Source of the DNA: a virus
Length of the DNA: 64,000 nucleotides
Direction: 5' to 3' (one strand)
Virus record (IMG/VR): IMGVR_UViG_3300044722_000002
Span: 9,123-73,122 of that record
In this document: piece after piece, positions 1,987 through 55,154 of the stretch
Numbering within the stretch: position 1 is the first letter of the stretch
How the letters are laid out: every line of letters begins with the position of its first letter
Position numbers and translations under genes: made by a program
Notes under the pieces: model-generated
What the model was told of the DNA's origin: nothing
Databases searched by the model: none
Seen by the model: only the letters and a program-made list of their open reading frames with translations

Positions 1987-3111
1987 ATGCCCGGCCCCGG
2001 ATCGTATGGCCCTGGACCCCAACAATCGTTGACGGTCAAAGAAGAAGATGGCTCACCCTCGATTTCAGGTGTGCGTATTATCAAAGTTTCAAACGGCTCG
2101 CTCACTGACGACGGGGCGGGGATTGTGTCGATTGATACCAGCGGAGGCTCGGGAGACGTGGTTGGGCCAGCCTCAGCAGTCTCAGGTCATCTTGCGGTGT
2201 TCAGTGGAACTACCGGAAAGTTAATTGCAGATGGCGGGGTAGTGCCGACAGGGATTACTAACGGAGCAGGGACGAACGTAGTTCCTGTAAGCGACGGAAC
2301 GAACCTCGTTGGCCCAGCCGGACTTGCCGCAACTCTTCCGCTCACTACGGGAAGTCTGGCGATTACCGGCACGCCTACTAGCGGGAACCTTACATCAATC
2401 GCGGCCTCAGGCACGGGCGCAACTTCCAACACCAAGACCGGACTGAACGTCGCCACCAGTGGGGCGAATGCTACTTCATCGCAGACAACGTTTGGCATAC
2501 AGGTATCCAACCTCTCCACGGGCACTTCGTCCAAGAACATCGCCGCGAGTTTCAATGCAGACAACGGGGCAACCAACTGGGACGCACAGTTTGGAACGGG
2601 CGGTGCGGGTAACTCAGGAGTATGGGTAGAAAACATTGCAGGGTTCCGTCGGATAGGTTTAGACCGGACAGGGACGTTGACCTACCTCGAAGGCGACGGT
2701 CTTTTTATGGAGAATTCCAGCAGTGGGTCTGCGCTGGTGCAGTGGCGAGCAGACACAGCGATTGGAAGATCGGCGGCGGGGCTAGTCGAAGCCAATAACG
2801 GCACGCCGGGAACCTTTCGAGATTTCAAGGCCCGTGAGTTCATTGCCGACGCAACGGTCACTGCCGGAGGAACTACGGGCGCGCAGACTATTAACAAATC
2901 TGCCGGTTCGGTAAACTTCGCCGCTACTGCCACGTCCTTAGTCGTAACAAACTCACTGGTGACGGCTTCCAGTGTGATCATTTGCACGGTTGCCGCTAAT
3001 GACACAACTTTCAAATCTTGCCAAGTGGTAGCAGGAGCGGGATTCTTTACTATTTTTGCAAACGCAGCAGCCACAGGTGAAACAAGGGTAAATTTCTGGA
3101 TTACCAACTAG
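1987..3111 (+). CDS. Tail fibre-like structural protein
   Basis: RBS GAGGAG; G/T/A/S-rich; GDVVGPASAVSGHLAVFSGTTGKLIADG and GTTGAQTINKSAGSVNFAA segments resemble phage fibre proteins. Confidence 0.65.
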   Translation: MPGPGSYGPGPQQSLTVKEEDGSPSISGVRIIKVSNGSLTDDGAGIVSIDTSGGSGDVVGPASAVSGHLAVFSGTTGKLIADGGVVPTGITNGAGTNVVPVSDGTNLVGPAGLAATLPLTTGSLAITGTPTSGNLTSIAASGTGATSNTKTGLNVATSGANATSSQTTFGIQVSNLSTGTSSKNIAASFNADNGATNWDAQFGTGGAGNSGVWVENIAGFRRIGLDRTGTLTYLEGDGLFMENSSSGSALVQWRADTAIGRSAAGLVEANNGTPGTFRDFKAREFIADATVTAGGTTGAQTINKSAGSVNFAATATSLVVTNSLVTASSVIICTVAANDTTFKSCQVVAGAGFFTIFANAAATGETRVNFWITN

Positions 3112-3120
3112 GAGTCTGTT

Positions 3121-3570
3121 ATGTCAATCTTATCTCTAACGCTAAACGACTCAACGAAACTGTACGAGCTGGGCAATGGCGCACCAAAGTCTGTCTATCA
3201 ATTCGTTTGGGACTTTGCGGTCTTAGGAGGCGCGGTAGGCTCAATCCCGCTCACGCAAATCAATGGCCCACTCCCAAACAATTTCATGATCCAGAACGCC
3301 TGTCTTGATGTTATCACGGGAATGACAGGCGACATCGGAGCGACTGGGGCGGTGACAAGCGGTCAAGGCGCAAACGATCTAGTAGTCGCTACTGTAGTTG
3401 CTGGTGCGCCATTCTCGACTACCGGGCCTAAAGTGACACTACCTTTACTCGGAACTATCGCAACCTGGGTCAAGACCACGGCGCAGAGATCACCTGCATT
3501 GGTAATCGCCGTCAACGCGTTCACGGCCGGGAAGTTCAATCTTTGGGTTGAAGGTGTTGTGAGTTCGTGA
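3121..3570 (+). CDS. Putative virion structural protein
   Basis: RBS AGGAG; beta-rich; last gene of the plus-strand tail block; its stop abuts the convergent gene. Confidence 0.5.
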   Translation: MSILSLTLNDSTKLYELGNGAPKSVYQFVWDFAVLGGAVGSIPLTQINGPLPNNFMIQNACLDVITGMTGDIGATGAVTSGQGANDLVVATVVAGAPFSTTGPKVTLPLLGTIATWVKTTAQRSPALVIAVNAFTAGKFNLWVEGVVSS

Positions 3571-4089
3571 TTAGTAGTTACGCCGCGCCGCAAGAATATC
3601 GGCCTCAGTAATCCTCGGCCCCGGCCGGTTCAACCCGTGGTCAAAGTGCCCCATAATGGACTTCCCGCTGTTTACGTCCGGCAATCCCAACGAATGCCCT
3701 GTCTCATGCCCCACGAAGCTCTCAATCGCGTCCAGAGCCTGTGTGCGAGGGTCTAGCTCGATTACCGCACAGCCGATGAATTGAGTGTTGATAATCGGCC
3801 ACGCGGTCAGGTGAGCGAGTTCTGAGGGGTTGGACGAGACGGCACGGGTGAGGGTTAGGCAATTTTCACACTTCATTACTTCAGATGTGTTGCCCGCCTC
3901 CGTGAAGGCTATGTTCGCGACATTCCACAATCTCATGCCGCGAAATGCGGCTGCTCGCTGTTCAGGTGAGAATCCAGGCATGAAGTAGACGGGAACGTTG
4001 GTATCCGGTCGCCAGCGATAGAACGACTGGCAGTGGGTCAGTGTCCAGCAGGTAAGGAGGATGATGATTGTCCAGACTGCGCGTTTCAT
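3571..4089 (-). CDS. Secreted matrixin-like (metzincin) zinc metalloprotease
   Basis: N-terminal hydrophobic signal; HETGHSLGLPD (HExxHxxGxxD) and SIM Met-turn. Confidence 0.8.
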   Translation of the reverse strand: MKRAVWTIIILLTCWTLTHCQSFYRWRPDTNVPVYFMPGFSPEQRAAAFRGMRLWNVANIAFTEAGNTSEVMKCENCLTLTRAVSSNPSELAHLTAWPIINTQFIGCAVIELDPRTQALDAIESFVGHETGHSLGLPDVNSGKSIMGHFDHGLNRPGPRITEADILAARRNY

Positions 4090-4095
4090 GGAGCG

Positions 4096-4674
4096 TTATA
4101 CTTTCTTGAATTCGATTACCCACACGAACGGGTTACTCTCCCATGAGTAGCCGCGCTTGGCGCTGAGCGCGTTCCATCCCTCCGCCCACAATCTTCGCTC
4201 CCAATCAAACTCTGAAATGTAAGTGCCGTTAGGGTAGTCTTTAGGCAAAATTCCCTCAGCCTGAATGTCCGCGCTACTTATCTCCTGCAATCGCTCAACG
4301 CGAATATTTGTGATTTCTAAAGTGATGCGTGATGCGATTCGCGGGAGGAAGATTGAGGGATACCATCGCGCTACATCAGCGTTTTCACTGGCTGCTCTGT
4401 ATACGTATGTGACGTTTTTGCCGGTTTTCCAATTTCCGATTTGACCGCTCGGTGCGTAGGCACTGAAAGTCTCGCGCACCCAAAGACGATCACCGGGCTT
4501 GCCGTAGGGACACTTCACATCAATGAAGCCTGCTTCCCAAGCAGCCGAAACAACTTCTTCTTGACCGCTGTGTAGCTTCGGCTGCGGTTTCACAACCCGC
4601 CGCGACTGAGTCTTTCGCCCTTCCAGAATCGCGCGCACCATAGCTCCTGCAAATAGAATCGGGTGTTCCGTCAT
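4096..4674 (-). CDS. ASCH/PUA-like phage protein
   Basis: PILF..MVRAILEGRKTQ.RR, CPYGKPGDRLWVRET, ERLQEIS and W..NPFVWVIEF motifs. Confidence 0.8.
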   Translation of the reverse strand: MTEHPILFAGAMVRAILEGRKTQSRRVVKPQPKLHSGQEEVVSAAWEAGFIDVKCPYGKPGDRLWVRETFSAYAPSGQIGNWKTGKNVTYVYRAASENADVARWYPSIFLPRIASRITLEITNIRVERLQEISSADIQAEGILPKDYPNGTYISEFDWERRLWAEGWNALSAKRGYSWESNPFVWVIEFKKV

Positions 4675-5111
4675 TACTCAACCTCCCTAACGCTCACAAG
4701 TGCAGCGCGGAATTCTTTATAGTCGTAGTAGCGAATGCGAAGAGTAATCCACTTACCCTTAACCATTCCTTTAGCTTCATTCCACTGAGGTAGAAGATAA
4801 AACAGTGCTCCCGGTGCTGCGCGCCACACGGCATACCTCAGGTGCACGTTCGTCCAGATATCTCCCCCAGTAGAAGGCTGGGCGTTACCTGACAATATCT
4901 CCGGATCACGAAGCGATGGCCAGTCAAGTTTCAGATGACCAACCATCACAACGTCACGTTCTACTCGACGCAAGTGATCGTCAAACGTGAACGTGGAAGT
5001 TCGGGTGACTGTGTGACCTTCACTCTCGACTGTAACCTCACGCTTGTAGGCGTAGTTCACCTGGGCGTTGATTGAGACAGCGAAGAGGAAGATGAGCGCG
5101 ACTTTAATCAT
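4674..5111 (-). CDS. Hypothetical secreted protein
   Basis: Start MIKVALIFLFAVSINAQ (signal peptide); ATGA coupling to the upstream gene. Confidence 0.6.
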   Translation of the reverse strand: MIKVALIFLFAVSINAQVNYAYKREVTVESEGHTVTRTSTFTFDDHLRRVERDVVMVGHLKLDWPSLRDPEILSGNAQPSTGGDIWTNVHLRYAVWRAAPGALFYLLPQWNEAKGMVKGKWITLRIRYYDYKEFRAALVSVREVE

Positions 5112-8553: not shown

Positions 8554-9654
8554 TCAGCCGCCGTCTAGCTCTGGCATTCTTGCGTCATACCGATCATATT
8601 CATCTGCAACCTTCGCTGCTGCTTCTATCCCGGCCCGCTGTCCTGCGCGATACATGTCTGAGCCTGTAAGGGCTGATTCAACCAAAAATCTCACAGCGGC
8701 TAAGTCTTGGGACTCAGAATCGACCGACGTACCCAACAGTCCTGCGTTAGTAAGCTTCTCCGCGATCTCGCTTGCCATCGCTGTAGCTTGAGCAGTGTCC
8801 TGCGGTCTCCATGACGACTCGATCCATTCTTCAAACTTTATTCGCGTGTGAATTTCGAGTGCGGTGTGGTCAGGCGCACATTCTCCCGTCTCTATCCAGT
8901 GTGTTAGATATTTAGCCGCGTCGTCGCGCATCCCTGTGAAAAGATTTGGCCCCAATGATTCGTCAAACCAGTGATGAACAAGTTCAAGAAACCATCGCAC
9001 GACTGTTTCGGGGTGGGCGCGAGATGTCATGTAATAGCCCTTCGGAGCAGCATCCAACACTTTGTATTTGGTAATAACAACCGAGGAATGCCCTAGGTCG
9101 GCGTCCTTCCCTGAATCTTGTACTGGTTGGTTAAGTTGATGGCGGGTGTTCCAAGTTGTAACAGCCTCCGAGACGCTGCTGTAGTTTGGAAAACCCCCTT
9201 CTGCCAGCCGCTGGCAATTACAGGACGGGCAGTGAACCTGCCAGCAGTTATCAATCAGCATAATCTTACCGTGCTCAATTACAGCCTCTTGTTCTAGCGA
9301 TGGCTCTCCGCCGCAAAATGGACACGGCAATAGTTCTTGTTCTCTAATTGGCCCACGACCACCACCCCACCCGAGCGGCTGATCATAGGCGGGCGATGCT
9401 GGTGATGGCTCTTGCTCTCCACCCTGAGAGGGAACTTCTGGTTCCCACTGGCTATCATCGTAACTTTCGCCGCCAACTATGCTCCCTAGTCGCGGACTCA
9501 ACACCTGTGGGTAATCAAAGGTGTACTTGAAGCCGCGCTCCGTTATCTCAGTCACGGTCGCTGGCGGATAATAGATTGCATGGCGATTCTTAATGCGGCT
9601 ACCAACGCTGAACCGCGTAGGCTGAGAGGAAGCATCTGATTTATCTGTGGTCAT
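8554..9654 (-). CDS. Mosaic protein with Lar (restriction alleviation)-like Zn domain
   Basis: LLPCPFCGG...CPSC...EAVTTWNTR. The C-terminus may be frameshifted (see findings). Confidence 0.7.
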   Translation of the reverse strand: MTTDKSDASSQPTRFSVGSRIKNRHAIYYPPATVTEITERGFKYTFDYPQVLSPRLGSIVGGESYDDSQWEPEVPSQGGEQEPSPASPAYDQPLGWGGGRGPIREQELLPCPFCGGEPSLEQEAVIEHGKIMLIDNCWQVHCPSCNCQRLAEGGFPNYSSVSEAVTTWNTRHQLNQPVQDSGKDADLGHSSVVITKYKVLDAAPKGYYMTSRAHPETVVRWFLELVHHWFDESLGPNLFTGMRDDAAKYLTHWIETGECAPDHTALEIHTRIKFEEWIESSWRPQDTAQATAMASEIAEKLTNAGLLGTSVDSESQDLAAVRFLVESALTGSDMYRAGQRAGIEAAAKVADEYDRYDARMPELDGG

Positions 9655-46694: not shown

Positions 46695-47450
46695 TTGCCG
46701 ACTATAACTGAGCTTTGCGACAATGTTCTCCTAAGACTTGGGGACCCTAGGAGTAACCGACCCTCCTACGCGCAAGCTCTCAATACCGTCTGTACGAACG
46801 TTCGGACAATCAAACGTCACCAGCGAAACACTTCAAATCCGTGGAACTACAATGACACGATAGTTCAAGTCGCCCCGGGTGTTCCGTCGTATCAGATTAC
46901 AGCAGCGGACTTCGGCACTCCTTTGGTAGTGCTTACCTGGGACCCGACTAACCCAGCGTGGATTGCCCGTCCTGTCCCGTTCTTCCAACCACAGAACATT
47001 GACACCTACGACTGGGGTTATCAACAGAATTCCGCTTTCGCGTTCACTCCTTATGATGGTTCGAACTGTACAGCCCAACGATGTGCTTTCTATTGGCGAG
47101 ACAATCAAGCCTACGTTGACTTTCTGCCTTTGCCGATGTCAGGTGCGTCATACAAAATACGTTACCTTCAATCAGCTAATGGAGTGAACTCGGCCGCGTT
47201 AACATCCTCTCCGCTTACCAATGAGGATGCTGATCTGTGCGAAGTCCGATCTGCCTTAGGACTGCTGGCTTTAACTGAATGGTCTGATTCGTCCGCTAAA
47301 GATGGACGTGATTACAACGCGGAACGTAGACGTGATCTATCCGCAACCCTGCAAGGTGAAGAAGCGGAACTACGTCGTCAATTCGAAGCAAGTCAACTGA
47401 TCACAACCGGGCCAAGAGTCTATGAGCGATGGAACAACATCACGGGTTGA
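46695..47450 (+). CDS. Putative head-tail adaptor protein
   Basis: T..EL...V..RLGD, PWN, T.....G...Y.I..DF, ..LP.P...Y.IRY pattern. Confidence 0.6.
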   Translation: MPTITELCDNVLLRLGDPRSNRPSYAQALNTVCTNVRTIKRHQRNTSNPWNYNDTIVQVAPGVPSYQITAADFGTPLVVLTWDPTNPAWIARPVPFFQPQNIDTYDWGYQQNSAFAFTPYDGSNCTAQRCAFYWRDNQAYVDFLPLPMSGASYKIRYLQSANGVNSAALTSSPLTNEDADLCEVRSALGLLALTEWSDSSAKDGRDYNAERRRDLSATLQGEEAELRRQFEASQLITTGPRVYERWNNITG

Positions 47451-47718
47451 CGATGTAACCGAGTTGTTGGCCAACGGCGCACGGTTACCCGAACATCCCG
47501 CTTCGACTAACTCGTTAAAAGTAGTCTCGTTTGGCACCGTAAGAGACGATGGTGACGGGACGATCCTTAAGGGTGGATTACATGAGAATGAGGTTCGAAT
47601 CTTGATGAGCGGGCATCCGGGAGCGTTGGGCCACCTTTACCGATTTGTGATTCGAAACCAGCGAATCTACCACACTCGTTCACTGGTTACGATTGACGTT
47701 CTCTGCGAAGATGCCTGA
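47422..47718 (+). CDS. Hypothetical protein
   Basis: Fills the gap and overlaps the TerL start. Confidence 0.4.
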   Translation: MSDGTTSRVDDVTELLANGARLPEHPASTNSLKVVSFGTVRDDGDGTILKGGLHENEVRILMSGHPGALGHLYRFVIRNQRIYHTRSLVTIDVLCEDA

Positions 47719-50700
47719 ACCAACCCTAGAACATGTACTTGATCTTCTCGCCAGTTCGACGCCTGAGCAGGTTGACAAAACAATGTCATGGCTCAAGGCG
47801 AACATTCCTGATACCTATAAAAGACTCAGCGCCTACCTTAAACTAAACAAAGGTATTTTTATTGAGCGGCGCGGGCCGGAGCATTGGTTAAAGACTCTTG
47901 GTGCGCAGACGTTCACCCGTCCCTTTGCTCCAATTCAACGAAGATTTTGGGAGTGGAACTGGGGAGCGTTAAATAAAGTACGAAACGGAGTCCCGCTTGA
48001 TCCGAAAGAGACGGTTGGGTTTCTACCGTGGCCCAGAGAAACAGGAAAGTCGAGCCACGTGGAGTGGGCGGCAATAGCCGAGGGAGCCATACTTAAAAGC
48101 GGCTATGTTATTTACCTCTCCGCAAAACTCTCACAAGCAATAGACCACGTGGTTGCGATTCGTGATCGCATCGAGTCGGAACACGTGGCTGAGACCTACC
48201 CGTGGCTGGGAAAACCAAAACTAGGAGCGCACGGAAATAAGTTCGGCTGGGGGCAGGAGTTTTTAATGACTTCGGGCGGCTGGTCTATTCGACCAGTCGG
48301 AGCGGATGTAGCGATGCGCGGCGGGAAGTCAATCAACCTTAGACCATCTATGGTGATTTGTCATGAACGCGGCACGCGAATGCTGCATGAGAGCCAGTGG
48401 ATCAAAGTAGAAGATCACCCCACGGCCAAAGAGCACCGATCTGATGGCGTTGAGGTGCAACTGCACGGACTTCCATTCAGGGAAACGGTTTCGCTGGATC
48501 ATCGGTATAAGGTTATTAGCAAGAGACGAACTACGGTTAACGGAGAGAAGAATGTTTATGTTTGGACTGCGCCAGCGTGGGTGAAAGGCAGTGATCTTTC
48601 CGAAGAGTGTTACGTCGGTCTGCCTATTGATTTCTCTGTGAAACCGCTCCAGCCTGTCTTAAAAGATTTTAGTCGGAAGAAAATTGTTGGACGTGATAAA
48701 AAGGGCCGAATCACTAAATATGAGAACGTGGGTTTGGAGCGTGTGGTTATTGAGGAGTTTTTTGATCCCGATTGGTGGTGGCTAATTGGATTGTGGTGGG
48801 GAGACGGACACTTAACAAAAACTCAGGTTGGGTGGACCATCGCCACTGCAGAGCCAGAGATATTTGCCCGCGTATCGTCCATTCTTCGTCGCTGGAATAA
48901 GCCCTATTCAGTCGTACCGAAGTCTGGATGCTCTCAAATTGTTATCGCGCATACAGCTATGAGCCGATGGCTGCGAACGTGGAAGTTAAGCAAAAAGCAA
49001 GGACATAAAGCCCCTCCCGCATGGGTGGAAAAACTTAACAGCGTCTATCAAGAGCGATTGATTCAAGGCTACGTAGCAGCGGACGGTTTTATTGACATCG
49101 CGGGGAACGGGGTTCGTATCACAAGCGTGAGTTTAGAAGGTCTGCTTGCGTTACGACGAATCCTTTTGCGATTTGGTATCTGTTCGTCTATCCGACGGGG
49201 TGTCGGGCCAGGGCAGATAGTTATCAAAGGAAGGACTTGCCAAACCCAACAAAAATATGACCTGAGATTTAGGGGTGGAGCAAGAAGTCTTGGATACCCG
49301 TTTGATGATCAAACTCGCTATGACTTTGTTCAGTATTTTATTGAGGACGGGTGGCTATGGTCGAAAATTAGATCGCTAGCCCCCGCGCTCGATAAAGTTT
49401 TCGTGCCGATAAAAACGGAAGATCATACATATGTAACGGCATTTGGTCAGTCGCACAATTGCGACGACTACGACGAGCTGGGCGACTCTCCGCACGTGGT
49501 TGAGCATAAGGAGCACATGCTAACGCGGGCCATCCTTCCGATGGGCAACGCTAACACCCGTGTGCTCGTTCCGCAGAACCCAATTCATCCGAATTCAGTG
49601 GTTAACCGAATGCTGACGGGCGCATCTCTTGCTTTGGCTATCCGTACTATCTTTGGGGAGATTAACGAAGAGGGCTCACTTAGCGCGAGACCAATCCAAG
49701 CCGTTAAGGGATTAGTGTACGAAGTTCGTCAGGCCGACGAAGGCCCGTACTCGGTCATCACGCAGGGCGAGTCTAACTGGCCCGGTATCACGGTTTCTGA
49801 CTGGGAAGGCACAATGAACAGGGTAAGCCCGGACGCGTTTGCCGCTGAATACCAGCACGATATGACGGTAGTAAAAGAGGAAAGAGTACTACCTGAATAC
49901 GATGATCGTGTTTTACGTTTACACGTAATTACCTGGAGTCAGTTTGAGGCGAAATATAAGATACGTCGAATTCCGAGAGACTGGCCCTGCGATGTTGGGC
50001 TGGACATTGGTTACACGGTGGCCCACAAGTCAGCATGGTCGTTCATTAGTAAAGTACCGCAAGCATATGAATTGTCGGGCTCAATCTTCCGCTACCGAGG
50101 CCGCACGTTCACCGGCATTGGCATAGACGAACAGGCGGTAATCATTCGCAGTGAACTTTGGCCGGAAGAAAAGATTGAGCGAGAGTACATGAGCCATGAA
50201 AAACTAGGCGAGCGAATGGTTCTGAATTCCAAGCATGACTGGCACTTTAATCCATTTCCTGATATTGGAAAATTTGCAGGGGTGGCCCAGTGGCGACACT
50301 TTTTAATGTCCGATCATTCTCAACCGCATCCGTTTCATCCTGACAGAAAAGGGATAGACGGACGTTGGGAGCTTGGTCGTCCGGCATGGTTTGACGTGGT
50401 CGATGATCGACAGTTTATCGCCCCAGTGGACGATGCGGGCATGAAAGGGCATCGCGACGGTGCTTATAACTGGCGTAAAGTGCCGGTTAAGTTAACGGAT
50501 AAAGGATTAACTATTGAGCAGCCAGCTAAGAAGGATGACGATGAATGCTTTGTGGCTGGAACTCTGATTACGACCGCGAGAGGCGAAGTCCCGATTGAAG
50601 AAATAGGCCAAAAAGATGTAGTCCTGACACGACAGGGATGGTATAGTGTTCTCGCTTGTGGCAAGACTAAATCTGAGGCTGAAATATGGACAATAACCCT

Positions 50701-51727
50701 AAGCAGTGGAAGCCAATTGAGCGGGACGAAAACACATCCGATTTGGGTTGTGGGTTACGGGTGGAAACCGTTATCGGAGATAAGGGCAGGCGAGAGGTTG
50801 TTGTCTTTAACGGAGTGCGCTTCTATCGCTACCCAGAGTCAAAGCATTGGGCGCACCGAGCCTATTTCAAGCCCCACGTACACGCCGTTCGTAAGGGAAT
50901 TGGTGCGTTACACATCGAGCTTTGGAAGTCTGTTCACGGAGATATTCCAGAAGATCACGCGGTTCATCACAGGGACCATAATCCGCTTAACAACGCCGAT
51001 TCCAATTTTGAATTACTTACCCGTTCCGAACATAGCAGCCATCACGGGAATAACATGCAGCCTGAAGTTAAGGCGCGAATGCGCGCAAATATTATCAGCC
51101 AGCAGGAATTGGCAAAGATCTGGCATCGAAGCGACGAAGGAAGGGAGTGGCACAGAAAACACGCTTACCAAAGCATTCAGCCGCCACCTAAAATTGAAAT
51201 GCAATGCATGTACTTCTTTTGTCAAAAGCTTTTTCAGGGGCGTAAGGGGGTTAGTAAGTTTTGTTCGACGGTCTGTAAGCAGCGCGATTACGACGGAGTT
51301 GTTCCCACATGGCGATTATGTTTACAGTGTAATACGCCGTTTGAAGTCGGAACCAAGGATCGCGTCCACTTATACTGCGGAGGTTTTCGTTGTAAGCAAT
51401 CAGAGGATAGATGAACTTTCCACTGTTTACAATCTTTCAGTAGAGCGTCATTCTGAGTATTTCGCTAACGGCGTGCTGGTTCATAATTGTGACAGCACAC
51501 GCGGAATTTTAACGGGTTTTGGGCCATCTGAACAGGCGATGACGCAATCACAGAAAATACAGCAAATCATCCCCGCTGGCTATCATAAATCTGAGTTGCT
51601 TTTGAGAAACGATATCCCTCCCGACGTTGCTCACATGACCGGGGAGATGGCTGACTGGCTGGCGCGAAGGACGCTTGCTTTAAGACAACCAAAAGCAGTA
51701 GACGATTATGGTCAGATTATTTCGTAA
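47711..51727 (+). CDS. terL: Terminase large subunit with two inteins
   Basis: Walker A PRETGKS; Walker B MVI|CDD interrupted by intein 1; F.AEYQ; nuclease GLDIG and DDE|CDSTR interrupted by intein 2. Confidence 0.9.
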   Translation: MPEPTLEHVLDLLASSTPEQVDKTMSWLKANIPDTYKRLSAYLKLNKGIFIERRGPEHWLKTLGAQTFTRPFAPIQRRFWEWNWGALNKVRNGVPLDPKETVGFLPWPRETGKSSHVEWAAIAEGAILKSGYVIYLSAKLSQAIDHVVAIRDRIESEHVAETYPWLGKPKLGAHGNKFGWGQEFLMTSGGWSIRPVGADVAMRGGKSINLRPSMVICHERGTRMLHESQWIKVEDHPTAKEHRSDGVEVQLHGLPFRETVSLDHRYKVISKRRTTVNGEKNVYVWTAPAWVKGSDLSEECYVGLPIDFSVKPLQPVLKDFSRKKIVGRDKKGRITKYENVGLERVVIEEFFDPDWWWLIGLWWGDGHLTKTQVGWTIATAEPEIFARVSSILRRWNKPYSVVPKSGCSQIVIAHTAMSRWLRTWKLSKKQGHKAPPAWVEKLNSVYQERLIQGYVAADGFIDIAGNGVRITSVSLEGLLALRRILLRFGICSSIRRGVGPGQIVIKGRTCQTQQKYDLRFRGGARSLGYPFDDQTRYDFVQYFIEDGWLWSKIRSLAPALDKVFVPIKTEDHTYVTAFGQSHNCDDYDELGDSPHVVEHKEHMLTRAILPMGNANTRVLVPQNPIHPNSVVNRMLTGASLALAIRTIFGEINEEGSLSARPIQAVKGLVYEVRQADEGPYSVITQGESNWPGITVSDWEGTMNRVSPDAFAAEYQHDMTVVKEERVLPEYDDRVLRLHVITWSQFEAKYKIRRIPRDWPCDVGLDIGYTVAHKSAWSFISKVPQAYELSGSIFRYRGRTFTGIGIDEQAVIIRSELWPEEKIEREYMSHEKLGERMVLNSKHDWHFNPFPDIGKFAGVAQWRHFLMSDHSQPHPFHPDRKGIDGRWELGRPAWFDVVDDRQFIAPVDDAGMKGHRDGAYNWRKVPVKLTDKGLTIEQPAKKDDDECFVAGTLITTARGEVPIEEIGQKDVVLTRQGWYSVLACGKTKSEAEIWTITLSSGSQLSGTKTHPIWVVGYGWKPLSEIRAGERLLSLTECASIATQSQSIGRTEPISSPTYTPFVRELVRYTSSFGSLFTEIFQKITRFITGTIIRLTTPIPILNYLPVPNIAAITGITCSLKLRRECAQILSASRNWQRSGIEATKEGSGTENTLTKAFSRHLKLKCNACTSFVKSFFRGVRGLVSFVRRSVSSAITTELFPHGDYVYSVIRRLKSEPRIASTYTAEVFVVSNQRIDELSTVYNLSVERHSEYFANGVLVHNCDSTRGILTGFGPSEQAMTQSQKIQQIIPAGYHKSELLLRNDIPPDVAHMTGEMADWLARRTLALRQPKAVDDYGQIIS
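48359..49459 (+). mobile_element. Intein 1 (367 aa) with LAGLIDADG endonuclease
   Basis: C1 (CHERGT), SLDH block B, LIGLWWGDG and LIQGYVAADG motifs, ends SHN|C. Confidence 0.92.
50546..51487 (+). mobile_element. Intein 2 (314 aa), no in-frame endonuclease
   Basis: CFVAGTLITTARG.VPIE, TKTHPIW, VYNLSVE..EYFANGVLVHN|C. Confidence 0.92.
50686..51414 (+). CDS. HNH endonuclease with two Zn-finger repeats, nested out of frame in intein 2
   Basis: LH..LW...HG.IP....VHHRDHNPLNN..SNFELL...EH..HH; C....CQK.F...KFCS..C; CLQCN.PF...YC...C; RBS GAGG 7 nt before ATG. Confidence 0.88.
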   Translation: MDNNPKQWKPIERDENTSDLGCGLRVETVIGDKGRREVVVFNGVRFYRYPESKHWAHRAYFKPHVHAVRKGIGALHIELWKSVHGDIPEDHAVHHRDHNPLNNADSNFELLTRSEHSSHHGNNMQPEVKARMRANIISQQELAKIWHRSDEGREWHRKHAYQSIQPPPKIEMQCMYFFCQKLFQGRKGVSKFCSTVCKQRDYDGVVPTWRLCLQCNTPFEVGTKDRVHLYCGGFRCKQSEDR

Positions 51728-51815
51728 CTAAATCATTGCGGTTACGGGCCTTCTAACGTATATTTCAGTTCGATGCGGCGACTCCCCGCAAAACCAAAGA
51801 GAGAGGTAAATAAAC

Positions 51816-52169
51816 ATGAGCGGTCTTTTAAGCTATAACAGTGCGTATCAAGTTCAGAGTGCTGACGTTGGTTACGCAATCCTTCAAGCTGGCAAGCAGG
51901 GGTATCTCACTGACGCGCTGATCGTCGCCGCGACTTCTGCCGACGATCTCATTGCCGACGTGAATGCCGCGATCGTCAGCCCCGGCGCAGAGGCTAACCC
52001 GCAGCGTAACTCCATCGCTCGTGCACTCAAGGTCGGTCAAGGGCTTGGAGACTTGTCGAACGCGAGAGTTCAGGGCGCAACCAGCGTCCAGACACTAGCG
52101 GAACTTACCTGGGTTACGAACGATCAAAGTTATCTTACTGGGCATCTAGGGCCAAATCTTTTACCGTAG
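51816..52169 (+). CDS. Hypothetical virion protein
   Basis: RBS GAGGT; promoter-like TTGCGG-N17-TATATT upstream. Confidence 0.6.
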   Translation: MSGLLSYNSAYQVQSADVGYAILQAGKQGYLTDALIVAATSADDLIADVNAAIVSPGAEANPQRNSIARALKVGQGLGDLSNARVQGATSVQTLAELTWVTNDQSYLTGHLGPNLLP

Positions 52170-52199
52170 CGATTCCAAGGGTAGAAAGGAGTAGATTCC

Positions 52200-52568
52200 T
52201 TGTTCGGTCGCTACAGTGTTTTCAAGTGGCAGTTCTGGCGGTGGCGTTATCGCTACTGGCGCAAGCGTGCGGTAAAGGCTGAAAAGCTTTTAACTGCCGA
52301 GACTAACCGCAATCGTGAACGTGAGGACGAGCTAGCCACCGCCCCGATACGCTTGGGAGGATTATTTGCCCCGCCTCCCCGAGTGACGCAAGCACCGCCT
52401 ATTGCTCAACCCGTACAGAGTGAAGGGTTGTCGTGGGCAGATAATCAGGAGTTTGAGATGTACTGGAAGCCGGACGCCGAAGCAGCCAATATCCCCGTAT
52501 CTCAAGCCATGCAAAAGTTTCGTCAAGAGTTGGCAAGCCGTCATCTAAATGACGATCCTTTCAATTAG
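52200..52568 (+). CDS. Hypothetical protein
   Basis: RBS AAGGAG, TTG start. Confidence 0.55.
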   Translation: MFGRYSVFKWQFWRWRYRYWRKRAVKAEKLLTAETNRNREREDELATAPIRLGGLFAPPPRVTQAPPIAQPVQSEGLSWADNQEFEMYWKPDAEAANIPVSQAMQKFRQELASRHLNDDPFN

Positions 52569-52574
52569 GAATGA

Positions 52575-55154
52575 ATGTCCCCCGAAAGTTATTTCACACA
52601 ACTCTCAGTTCCTCTAGCGCGCACGGCCCAAAACTTCGCGCCGCGCAAGCCGTTGGACGATACCGTCCGCAATAAAAAACTCCCCAAGACTCCCACTAAG
52701 TTTGAGCAGTCCATCCGTGAGTGGTACCAGTCAAAATTAAACTACGAAAAACTCGCGTGGGAAGAAATGATTTCAATGGCCCAACTGGTGGCCATGTTCC
52801 GCAAGGGTCAGCAGTTACTGGTTCGCCGTCCCTACGGCCCCGGTTACTATGTTCGTCCCGTTAAGGACGACTCGACTGACCGGCAGACCGCGATGAACCT
52901 TATGTCCTTTCACTCTCAGGTGAGCGAGGCAAAGGTGATTGCGTCTAACCCTACGGTCAGCATGCGCGCGGGTGATGACACCCCGGAAGCTATCGCTGCT
53001 GCGCAAGCCTGTAGGCCGACTGTAGATAATTATGAAACTGAGTGGTACACGGCAAAGTTCTCTCGTCGCGAAGCTATCCGATTCCTTACGGATGGAATGG
53101 TTATCCATCAGGTTCGCTGGAATCCGTTTAAGGGAGGGTATGAAGTTCAGGAGCGGAAAGTCTCTCGACAGGAGGTAATGATCGATCCGGGTGCGGGGAT
53201 TTGTGCTGATTGTCAACACGAAGCCGATGCCGATGAGTTCCAGCCTAGTGAGTACGGAAATAAATGTCCTAACTGTGGGAGTGAGGCGGTGGACGTTCGC
53301 AAATCCGTAAAACAAAACCTTCCACAAATCGGCATGGGCGCAAAGAAACTGGCAGGTGAACCGGAAATCATCTCAAGTCCCTTTGCATCTTGGCGTTGGG
53401 ATTTATCAAGAGACTTGGAGTTGTCCTCATGGGCCATTAAACGTCAGCGAATAACTCAGGGCGCAATCAACCTCATGTTGGGAAACGTTACCGTCCCGGA
53501 CAGTGCTAGTAGTGAAGATTACGGACTGGAACTAGTACACGCCGTTACCTATGGTGGACAAGCCTTTCAAGGAATTTCTCATACTGCTAATAATCAAAGC
53601 CAATGGGACAAACGCCCGACAATGGTTGAGGCGTGGATGTCCGCCGAAGATCAAGCAACTATTGAATGTGAAGAAGGTGACACGATCTGTGGAGTTACCA
53701 TGCCGAAAGGTCGCATGTCGGACTTCTTCAAAGGTGCGCCGGTTTGTCTTGTCGGATTAAATGATATGTCGCTGATCGTAGGGACTTTCGCGAATGAATC
53801 CCACATGCAGGAAGTAGAAACAGCTCAGTGGTTCATGGATGCCGAGTCTGGCGGTGGACGAGGAATGGAAGATACCGCCGCTGTGCAGAAAAGGTTCAAC
53901 GCGGTTGATGGGCATGTGTATAAAGGTCTGGCAACAACGGCCACCCCTCCTGTGTTCGTTGATATGCGAATGATTAAAGAGGACACTGGGCAGTACTTAT
54001 TTAAGCCCGGCGTTAATCATGACGTGAACCTTTCCATGCTTCCGGTAGGAATGAAACTGCCTGATGCTATTTACATGCCGTCTCCCGGCGCGGTGTCTCA
54101 GCAGTACATTCAATACGGCTCTCAGTTTCTCATGCAGATGCTTACGATGTCGTCGCTTTCCGTGGACTTTTCTGAGAACGTACTTCCGGTAGACAATCGA
54201 ACCGCTACAGGGGCACAGATTACCGCCCAACTGGCAAACTCACTCTATGGCCCAATGCTTATCTCGAAAGGTGAATCAAGAGTAGGGATCGCCAAGAAGA
54301 TCGTATCACTTGTAGCTAAGCATGGAGTAGCGTCGAGGTTCTTTCCGGGTAAGAGTAATGCACGTGGCCGATCAGTTTCCGGGCAGGACTTGAAGGGAAA
54401 GGTGATATTTGAACTAGTCGAGAACTCTCACCTTCCGGTAACTCCGTTTAGTCAACAGAGTGATGTGCAGAACATGTTCTTAGCGTATGGAAATGCGCAG
54501 GTGGCAATGGAGATCAAGAAGGCTGATCCTGAATTCTTCCGGGCTACATCTAAGCCTTACAACATTAACTGGGGCAGTGAGTCGGACGATAGTATTTCAA
54601 CTCTTTGTCTGTCTCGATTGGAGCAGATGAAGCAAGCGTTACAGGCGGGTGTTGACGATCCGAACATGTTGACGCAGATGATTCGACCTCCTGTGTCTAT
54701 GTACGAACCAAAGCAAGCAGAAAAGAAGCAGTGGTGGAGCGACTGGCTTGACCTCGACAGCGCGCAGAAGTCCCCGCAGGTACTCCGACAAGCGGCGGAA
54801 GCGATGTACAATCTTCATTTGAACCTTGAGACACAGAGACAGATGCCGGAATCGGTCAACGAAGGCCTTGTGGCTGGTTTGGGACAAGCCGCCGCCGCTG
54901 CCCCCTCGGCGCTCGGGGCGCAGGCGTTACAACAGAACGCCCCGCAAACTCAGGATGATCAGGAATTAGGGCTGGAAGCCGAGCATGCCATGCAACAGGA
55001 AGAGCAGGATCAGGAGGTGAAGTTAAAGGGTATGGAGTCGCATACAGCAATCAGGGTTGCAGAGATTCAAGGGGAGTCTCAGTTGAAGAACACAAAACTG
55101 GCCGGGGAAAACCAGTTGAAAGTTGCTAAAGCTAAACCAAAGAAGGTGGCGTAG
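52575..55154 (+). CDS. Portal protein (P22-like) with Zn-ribbon insertion
   Basis: 859 aa, downstream of TerL; G+Q, N.M, RTATGAQI motifs; Q/E-rich barrel tail; CADC...CPNCGS insertion. Confidence 0.8.
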   Translation: MSPESYFTQLSVPLARTAQNFAPRKPLDDTVRNKKLPKTPTKFEQSIREWYQSKLNYEKLAWEEMISMAQLVAMFRKGQQLLVRRPYGPGYYVRPVKDDSTDRQTAMNLMSFHSQVSEAKVIASNPTVSMRAGDDTPEAIAAAQACRPTVDNYETEWYTAKFSRREAIRFLTDGMVIHQVRWNPFKGGYEVQERKVSRQEVMIDPGAGICADCQHEADADEFQPSEYGNKCPNCGSEAVDVRKSVKQNLPQIGMGAKKLAGEPEIISSPFASWRWDLSRDLELSSWAIKRQRITQGAINLMLGNVTVPDSASSEDYGLELVHAVTYGGQAFQGISHTANNQSQWDKRPTMVEAWMSAEDQATIECEEGDTICGVTMPKGRMSDFFKGAPVCLVGLNDMSLIVGTFANESHMQEVETAQWFMDAESGGGRGMEDTAAVQKRFNAVDGHVYKGLATTATPPVFVDMRMIKEDTGQYLFKPGVNHDVNLSMLPVGMKLPDAIYMPSPGAVSQQYIQYGSQFLMQMLTMSSLSVDFSENVLPVDNRTATGAQITAQLANSLYGPMLISKGESRVGIAKKIVSLVAKHGVASRFFPGKSNARGRSVSGQDLKGKVIFELVENSHLPVTPFSQQSDVQNMFLAYGNAQVAMEIKKADPEFFRATSKPYNINWGSESDDSISTLCLSRLEQMKQALQAGVDDPNMLTQMIRPPVSMYEPKQAEKKQWWSDWLDLDSAQKSPQVLRQAAEAMYNLHLNLETQRQMPESVNEGLVAGLGQAAAAAPSALGAQALQQNAPQTQDDQELGLEAEHAMQQEEQDQEVKLKGMESHTAIRVAEIQGESQLKNTKLAGENQLKVAKAKPKKVA

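Follow-up and report, generated by a model that had tools for sequence, protein, structure and literature searches.

A gene for an HNH endonuclease placed out of frame within the intein of a terminase large subunit gene (terL) is already on record for the brucellaphages. In the 2012 GenBank entry of Brucella phage Tb (JN939331), terL (2347..4893) is marked 'intein present' and encloses ORF_08 (3170..3856), a 'putative HNH endonuclease', and the out-of-frame position of this HNH inside the brucellaphage terL intein is stated in the accessible part of Tevdoradze et al. 2015 (Virol J, PMC4422536). Here we describe a comparable locus in a viral stretch of 64,000 nucleotides, positions 9,123 to 73,122 of IMG/VR record IMGVR_UViG_3300044722_000002 (hereafter the window), where the second of two inteins in terL is overprinted in another reading frame by a gene for an HNH protein. 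The brucellaphages Tb and Pr (Perisivirus) share with the window a terL intein and a complete HNH open reading frame (ORF) with zinc ribbons on the same strand in a different frame. In phage Tb, however, the HNH is offset by +1, the intein occupies amino acids 218–506 of 848 beside the Terminase_6N match, and the nuclease carries the Pfam domain HNH (PF01844) in a C-terminal position after the zinc ribbons; when the Tb and window HNH proteins are compared by BLASTP, only a 28-residue motif aligns (E 1e-4).

Actinophage inteins with out-of-frame endonucleases, called rare, are described in the available portion of a preprint by Gosselin et al. 2025 (bioRxiv 10.1101/2025.01.02.630785), where a free-standing homing endonuclease is proposed to have invaded an intein. 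As far as that portion goes, these cases resemble the window in having an intact splicing domain and an in-frame middle without recognisable fold, in carrying the endonuclease on the same strand in 'frame 3', and in counting the terminase large subunit among their hosts. They are set apart by the published family assignment, since the nuclease there belongs to InterPro IPR004211 (endonuclease VII) with a match to PDB 1E7D over residues 1–67, whereas the only Pfam match of the window protein is HNH_3, although some overlap between the two families is conceivable. A tblastn search with the Tetrasphaera phage member of the window's family returned no Mycobacterium, Gordonia or Arthrobacter phage among the matches listed (60 of 456). 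The layout that the preprint calls rare is, in the HNH family of the window, the commonest form among the relatives examined.

Two further systems share parts of the arrangement. The first-pass annotation of the window, made from the letters alone, had correctly pointed to an alternative-frame HNH in a methylase insertion of actinophages: Arsenault et al. 2025 (PMC11855218) report, in the text accessible, an out-of-frame HNH in such an insertion without an intein. As in the window, the third frame of the insertion hides an HNH with zinc fingers, the host frame stays open and the similarity is to I-HmuI; unlike the window, which holds a full intein, that insertion has no splicing domain described as detectable and is thought to be retained in the protein. 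The same portion of the article gives no ribosome-binding site (RBS) and proposes leaderless GTG initiation, whereas ATG is usual in the window family (65/73 loci). Fractured genes, in which split inteins have a free-standing endonuclease gene between them, were presented by Dassa et al. 2009 (PMC2677866); in the sections available, the endonuclease gene has its own start and stop and separates the N- and C-terminal intein parts in essential phage genes, among them terminase, much as in the window. There the host gene is split and the nucleases are GIY-YIG and Vsr-like, whereas terL of the window is unbroken and encodes one polypeptide that would splice in cis. The fractured form as seen in those sections does occur in a relative of the window family, Vibrio phage 1.245.O (locus L005).

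The layout as such has therefore been known in print since 2015, and the novelty implied by the first-pass annotation does not hold in view of JN939331, PMC4422536 and the preprint of 2025; the window element differs by its nuclease family and by the dominance of the out-of-frame form. No account of the HNH_3 plus zinc-ribbon family nested at the terL motif of the window was found in the literature searched, which did not extend to subscription journals.

An HNH gene and an intein on the same DNA

The terL precursor ORF of the window (47693..51727; this and all following window features lie on the + strand) encodes 1344 amino acids including two inteins, has a putative TTG start, and belongs to a frame without stops from 47651 to 51724. 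It spans the nested HNH gene entirely (50686..51414; 242 amino acids, ATG start, TGA stop), which lies in the +2 (= −1) frame of terL because (50686 − 47693) mod 3 = 2. The sole Pfam match of the nested ORF at E ≤ 0.01 is HNH_3 (E 1.1e-11; 44.7 bits, cut-off 24.8; residues 75–117), and in PHROGs it matches phrog_15471, HNH endonuclease, with E 1.8e-22. The HNH catalytic core (50908..51045, residues 75–120) comprises the elements LH..W..G, HH.D, NN, N and H..H; the family alignment shows no variation at residues H94, H95, D97, N102, N103, N107, H116 and H120, and the window protein holds 21 of the 21 invariant family residues. The core is followed by two Cys-rich zinc-ribbon-like repeats (51205..51390, residues 174–235) in which C174, C179, C193 and C197 are nearly invariant. 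At its other end the protein has an unusual N-terminal extension of 42 codons, which overlaps block B of the intein (..GTKTHPIWV.., from about 50711) and is common to the two closest homologs, P0001 and P0002; the closest homologs are about 60% identical to the window protein.

The model of the HNH protein, built from a 12-sequence alignment, has a mean pLDDT, the model's predicted score in the local distance difference test, of 84.8, and within residues 21–200 the values per 10-residue block are 88–97 except for one block at 77; β-hairpins are found at residues 169–186 and 208–221. A Foldseek search of the PDB with this model gave nothing at E ≤ 0.001. The structure ranked first, weakly, by both aligners (Foldseek E 0.35; VIA Z 5.2) is I-HmuI (PDB 1U3E), the HNH nicking homing endonuclease that phage SPO1 encodes within an intron; its chain residues 1–103 are matched by model residues 22–123. 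This weak match covers the N-terminal sheet and HNH core of the model, and the VIA alignment gives a root-mean-square deviation of 4.4 over 79 residues with 14% identity. Whereas the window HNH lies in an intein, I-HmuI resides in a group I intron. In place of zinc ribbons, the C-terminal DNA-binding parts of I-HmuI are helical.

Intein 2 (50546..51487; 314 amino acids) is of the class-1 type, with Cys1, T61 and H64 in block B, and a C-terminal His-Asn. Its boundaries were set by motif search and its flanks read ..KKDDDE and CDSTRG... The N-terminal nucleophile is the Cys codon at 50546–50548, block B Thr-x-x-His is present in ..GTKTHP.., and the intein ends with ..VLVHN at 51487, immediately before the +1 Cys codon (51488–51490). 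In an alignment of 69 intein-frame sequences, which are the nested loci described below without the four from GenBank, C1, G31, H64 and N314 are invariant and T61 is at least 90% conserved. Pfam Intein_splicing scores 44.3 bits on intein 2 alone (cut-off 35.8) and 39.5 bits on the whole long ORF, at amino acids 986–1265, with Hint_2 also matched; a Pfam scan of the intein 2 frame returned Hint-type families only and no nuclease family. In the AlphaFold2 model made from the 69-sequence alignment, the N-terminal splicing part (50546..50812; residues 1–89, blocks A and B) has pLDDT values of 90–98, and the C-terminal splicing part (51377..51487; residues 278–314, blocks F and G, ..VYNLSVERHSEYFANGVLVHN), the amino-acid identity of which is 0.58 over 73 loci, has values of 96–98 over residues 278–315. 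The intervening intein-frame linker (50816..51376; residues 91–277) is stop-free and poorly conserved as protein, and with values of 36–67 per 10-residue block it has no confident fold. Taken with the confident Hint halves, this unconfident middle makes the intein frame a mini-intein-like Hint domain whose halves are bridged by about 185 residues. Judged from its intact residues and its insertion at the conserved terL motif between ..DDDE and C.., intein 2 is predicted to splice.

The first-pass annotation had described most of this: intact splicing blocks around a middle without nuclease motif, an HNH domain with two Cys-rich repeats in the +2 frame, both frames open throughout the nested ORF, the overlap with block B and a GAGG RBS 7 nucleotides (nt) before the ATG are all borne out. 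Its statement that the nested ORF has a stop of its own before blocks F/G is likewise correct, but the codon is TGA (51412–51414) and not TAG.

An apparent second frame could in principle arise from paired assembly indels that pushed an in-frame HNH out of frame, and the first-pass annotation had asked for this check. A Logan contig of 72,931 nt from a soil metagenome run, which is a possible source of the record, is identical to the window over 49400–51800. A soil run of another study contains four identical short contigs, two of which, 51239–51389 and 51410–51560, span the overlap's 3' part and the junction of intein and extein; this run covers 10 of 30 bins of the stretch, with the 5' end of the nested ORF outside. 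Just 3 nt ahead of its ATG, the frame of the HNH is shut by an in-frame TGA at 50680–50682, and the same offset is found in more than 115 independent assemblies. Together, the independent assemblies and the second sequencing run exclude compensating indel errors, and the likelihood of such an artefact is negligible.

Recurrence of the nested form and constraint on the two frames

Relatives of the HNH were examined in three collections. A tblastn search of GenBank phages with the window HNH protein matched 23 records. In four of these, Acinetobacter phage vB_AbaM_Highwayman, Tetrasphaera phage TJE1, Clostridium phage phiCDHM19 and Rhodobacteraceae phage LS06-2018-MD07, the HNH lies inside the annotated terL coding sequence at +2; the intein frame is open right through the HNH in all four, and the intein sits at a shared motif (..D[DH]x before an intein that runs from C to N, then C/S). 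The HNH is unannotated in each of them, in agreement with the earlier expectation that standard annotation would miss the nested gene. IMG/VR was queried with an alignment of the window HNH and 11 database homologs. Among the best 80 of 448 relatives, 68 are nested, a second frame being open in them for more than 350 codons over the entire HNH match, 12 are free-standing, and in no case does the HNH share its frame with a long ORF; the HNH is at host +2 in 66 of the nested loci and at host +1 in two.

The nested set used below comprises 73 loci, namely the 68 from IMG/VR, the four GenBank phages and the window. The block A Cys and the block G Asn followed by Cys/Ser are present in 73/73, and the inteins are 268–364 amino acids long (median 318). 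Intein_splicing is matched by 67 of the 69 intein-frame sequences (E ≤ 0.001) and a nuclease family by none. The N-exteins fall into several Pfam terminase families (Terminase_6N 38, Terminase_3 31, GpA_ATPase 8, of 68).

In cellular genomes and metagenome-assembled genomes (MAGs) the best 80 of 105 relatives were examined. An automatic rule, which counts the host frame from the HNH frame, called 46 nested at +1, 27 free, five 'nested at +2' and two with a long HNH-frame ORF. On inspection, L114 proved to be an ordinary nested case in high-GC DNA, so that at least 47/80 are nested; L130 is a real +2 case, and the other four '+2' calls, which have short host spans without splicing blocks, are doubtful. 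The record titles include Streptomyces, Corynebacterium, Bacteroides, Nostoc, Rhizobium and archaeal MAGs. Nested out-of-frame copies with blocks A and G are present on contigs binned as Thermoplasmatales (L099), an unclassified archaeon (L135) and Halobacteriales (L147); going by the binning as given, the element may circulate in archaeal viruses too. The other offset (host = HNH+2) is seen in L051 and L084 from IMG/VR and in L130, from a Candidatus Microsaccharimonas MAG, with host ORFs of 755–777 amino acids. These three share an N-terminal ..QEF.G..YY.C motif; in a weakly supported HNH tree L051 and L084 stand together and L130 apart, among free-standing relatives. The whole family is large, with 42,309 representatives at E ≤ 0.001 and 1,200 clusters (50% identity) at E ≤ 1e-30 in a HMMER search of 1.84 billion representatives, and its members come from phages and prophages across many bacterial phyla as well as from some archaeal MAGs.

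The two frames over the shared DNA are conserved in different ways. Across the 73 loci, nucleotide identities at codon positions 1, 2 and 3 of the HNH frame in the HNH interval are 0.515, 0.554 and 0.339, and those of the host frame in the same interval are 0.546, 0.343 and 0.494; the overlap is therefore least conserved at position 3 of the HNH frame, equivalent to position 2 of the host frame. For the N-terminal splicing part, by comparison, the host-frame identities are 0.487, 0.549 and 0.297, the third position being least conserved in the ordinary coding pattern. The overlap thus wobbles at the third HNH position, where any substitution is a replacement in the intein frame. The intein frame is at the same time kept free of stops: there are 0 host-frame stops in 15,788 codons of the nested loci against 135 in 3,109 codons of the same frame in 14 free-standing relatives, and when the window HNH ORF was shuffled among synonymous codons, the intein frame stayed stop-free in 48 of 20,000 shuffles, with a mean of 3.55 stops.

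Ratios of nonsynonymous to synonymous substitution rates (dN/dS) were determined for 18 close pairs, three of them near-identical and uninformative. In eight pairs from two lineages at 89–97% identity, dN/dS is 0.06–0.21 in the HNH frame; the host frame gives 0.85–3.5 across that same DNA, and the N-terminal splicing part 0–0.20. Five pairs of a third lineage at 68–72% identity (L025 = L028) give 0.13–0.19 in the HNH frame and 0.87–1.14 in the host frame; for their N-terminal splicing part the ratio is 0.16 in two, and dS is saturated in three. The pair L014–L075 (58% identity, 153 gap columns) gives 0.40, 0.66 and 0.63 for the HNH frame, host frame and splicing part, respectively, and for L034–L050 (62% identity) dS is saturated in the HNH frame and splicing part, with a host-frame ratio of 0.98. 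The close pairs behave as the first-pass annotation had predicted, and these comparisons support purifying selection on the HNH frame and stop avoidance alone on the intein frame over the same DNA. The overlap is a clean natural instance of two-frame coding in which one frame bears all protein-level constraint and the other merely avoids stops.

No HNH in frame within a terL intein, the arrangement that the first-pass annotation had named as evidence to the contrary, was found in the loci of 160 relatives or among the best 150 database representatives. Those 150 were taken from 1,200 profile matches at E ≤ 1e-30, and 148 of them are 186–363 amino acids long; in the two long ones (1134 and 1662 amino acids) the zinc-ribbon part alone was matched, repeatedly. 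A word-based search for longer, fused proteins found 0 among 161 candidates, which is weak evidence. One candidate for an in-frame intein nuclease, locus L146 on a contig of an uncultured Clostridia MAG, was rejected, the HNH being fused in frame behind a PAPS_reduct domain instead. Its 480-amino-acid open frame (3104–4543) contains a PAPS_reduct / PP-loop domain and the family HNH, and the next frame (4152–4691) still encodes the C-terminal splicing remnant of an intein and, after it, a terminase-like C-extein, so that the locus looks like a rearranged or decaying copy.

In a FastTree tree of the HNH proteins (165 rows, six of them unlabelled; L171 and L172, 51-residue matches, were excluded) nested and free states are interspersed, with 21 changes, three or four of which are forced by starred branches; since stars mark 20 of the 157 inner branches, this total of 21 is soft. 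The lack of an in-frame form, the occurrence of both offsets and the interchange of nested and free states on this weak tree bear on a broader proposal, which we put forward tentatively and hold to be somewhat less probable than its negation: that the out-of-frame layout is the only stable intein lifestyle for an elongated HNH/zinc-ribbon nuclease rather than a passing accident. If so, free-standing endonuclease genes that target terL would repeatedly capture inteins as safe harbours, and some 190 linker codons without meaning of their own would be kept open by selection. Selection would also disfavour in-frame fusion, for instance because the nuclease termini lie too far apart for the Hint loop or because tethering the nuclease to the TerL precursor does harm. 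Gene callers retain the long terL ORF alone, and as a consequence homing nuclease genes are under-counted and inteins misread as endonuclease-less.

Probable expression and homing, and alternative roles, of the nested gene

The start of the nested gene in the window is preceded by the Shine-Dalgarno-like motif GAGG (50675..50678), 7 nt 5' of the ATG at 50686. Over the 73 nested loci the HNH frame opens 9–108 codons ahead of its conserved N-terminal hairpin. This short stretch contains a start codon in 72/73 loci and an ATG in 65/73, and a Shine-Dalgarno-like core precedes the candidate start in 33/73, compared with 11.5% of extein codon positions. Programmed −1 ribosomal frameshifting, which would join the TerL N-terminus and the N-terminal intein part to the HNH in one fusion, has the geometry it requires in 66 of the 68 nested IMG/VR loci, where the HNH is in the −1 frame of the host. 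It is nonetheless highly improbable, and was rejected, given that a canonical −1 slippery heptamer occurs in the relevant stretch of 6/71 loci, four of these near-copies, and is missing in the window; the ATG kept in the stretch by most loci and the other offset of L051, L084, L130 and Brucella phage Tb also speak against it. With start codons kept and slippery sites rare, translation of the HNH looks independent, and the simplest reading for its production is independent initiation on the terL mRNA.

The distribution of the inteins among close terL relatives is a sign of mobility. In IMG/VR relatives whose middle extein is 64–80% identical to that of the window, intein 1 is absent from 6/6, and intein 2 is absent from the 4/4 that reach the site, where the sequence reads through as ..DDDE-NDST.., ..GDD-PNDS.. 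or ..DED-SCDA... In the loci of these six relatives (4–8 kb fetched) tblastn detected neither the HNH nor an intein at E ≤ 1.

We consider it likely that the locus is a mobile element of two genes in two frames, in which the intein renders the insertion harmless and homing is driven by an I-HmuI-like HNH that is translated on its own. The dual-coding mobile element proposed in the first-pass annotation is in this sense supported by comparative evidence. Anatomy, recurrence, conserved starts, the selection on each frame and the existence of alleles without the intein are shown here, and we infer the translation, nuclease activity, target site and homing of the HNH. In frame 0, ribosomes would traverse the whole element, producing Hint halves (residues 1–89 and 278–314) bridged by an unconstrained, probably disordered linker of about 185 residues; the halves would fold and splice out, so that the terminase again reads ..KKDDDE-CDSTRG... 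In the +2 frame, initiation at the ATG at 50686, with its GAGG 7 nt 5', would take place on the same late mRNA and yield a free 242-amino-acid nuclease with an N-terminal β-sheet, an HNH core and zinc ribbons, resembling I-HmuI. This nuclease would nick or cut terL alleles that lack the intein in co-infecting relatives, and the ensuing repair would copy the intein and the nuclease gene together.

Several observations weigh against this two-gene reading or limit its reach. Among the sequencing runs listed as containing this DNA, none is an RNA run. The informative dN/dS pairs are non-independent and come from three lineages other than that of the window, whose nearest HNH is about 60% identical, and in overlapping frames the dN/dS of each frame is not an independent measure. 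The census covers the best-scoring relatives of a window-centred query, and for this reason the nested fractions are not unbiased for the family. The structural match to I-HmuI is weak, as the Foldseek and VIA scores given above show. Of 200 shuffled versions of the RNA at the HNH start, 108 folded as well or better (z = 0.18), which gives no sign of a regulatory hairpin, and a search of 47000–52600 for promoter-like sites found five against 5.1 expected, hence no HNH promoter above background; besides the RBS there is therefore no sign of a dedicated expression signal. Finally, HNH and Hint similarity are weakly correlated (Spearman 0.15; 3/500 permutations as high), which is too weak to support strict co-inheritance as one unit and likewise does not refute it.

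HNH proteins of the HK97 gp74 type, encoded beside terminase genes, are reportedly required for packaging. The nested HNH might likewise be a terminase-associated packaging cofactor, as are HNH proteins beside terminase genes in cos phages, placed inside terL for co-expression. In keeping with such a role, the family is always tied to terL, either nested or just downstream: free-standing members adjoin the terL 3' end, with a terminase as upstream ORF in 6/10 and a portal as downstream ORF in 5/10, and in Pseudomonas phage PAE1 a free-standing HNH likewise follows terL directly. The idea has also been raised for the brucellaphages in the accessible part of PMC4422536, citing Kala et al. 2014. 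Against it, the closest terL relatives have no intein and no HNH within the 4–8 kb fetched, which makes the gene dispensable in this lineage; furthermore, the gene occupies the exact endonuclease slot of an intein, its best structural match is a homing nickase, and the same element is found at one motif in terminases of different Pfam families, which fits invasion better. A packaging cofactor is on this evidence quite improbable, and homing by an independently translated nuclease is preferred.

The window copy could also be a recently silenced relic, in which the intein still splices and the nuclease is no longer made or active. Homing endonuclease genes decay once they are fixed, and the window ORF has the unusual 42-codon extension over block B. 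Such decay is discussed in the portion of bioRxiv 10.1101/2025.01.02.630785 available. We regard a relic as unlikely, however, in that the ORF is full length and retains all 21 invariant family residues, the extension is common to P0001 and P0002, the model of the protein is confident, and both the RBS and the ATG are intact.

Free-standing and split relatives and the surroundings of terL

The split form mentioned above is found in Vibrio phage 1.245.O (L005, NC_055736). Its terL ORF (3–2519) ends in an N-intein part, and is followed by a free HNH ORF (2384–3118), unannotated in RefSeq, and by a 114-amino-acid ORF (3030–3371) that contains the C-intein part; in addition, a piece of a second intein is found in the terL ORF close to its cut 5' end. 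A further IMG/VR locus, L046, combines two kinds of homing element at one terL: a gpA-type terL with a LAGLIDADG-containing intein (1–2601) is followed by a free-standing HNH of the family (2620–3291) and then by the portal gene. One nuclease family is accordingly met in three forms, free-standing beside terL, nested out of frame and within a split intein. These forms may represent living intermediates for the model, set out in the part of bioRxiv 10.1101/2025.01.02.630785 at hand, of a free-standing endonuclease gene invading an intein.

The identity of the long ORF of the window as a terminase large subunit is given by PHROGs matches to phrog_38 (E 3e-12, amino acids 597–734) and phrog_2 (E 7.2e-7). 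A blastn comparison of the region with GenBank phages and a tblastn comparison of the middle terL extein with the same phages gave no match, and the window has no close sequenced phage relative at terL by these searches. Intein 1 (48359..49459; 367 amino acids) lies between ..RPSMVI and CDDYDE.. and contains an in-frame LAGLIDADG endonuclease domain (Pfam LAGLIDADG_3, E 2.5e-13); from a reading of the motif, its insertion point looks like the Walker B region of terL. A single terL gene thus hosts both a canonical in-frame intein and an out-of-frame one. Downstream, two small ORFs of 117 and 122 amino acids (51816–52568) separate terL from an 859-amino-acid ORF (52575–55154), which by its position looks like a candidate portal protein gene.

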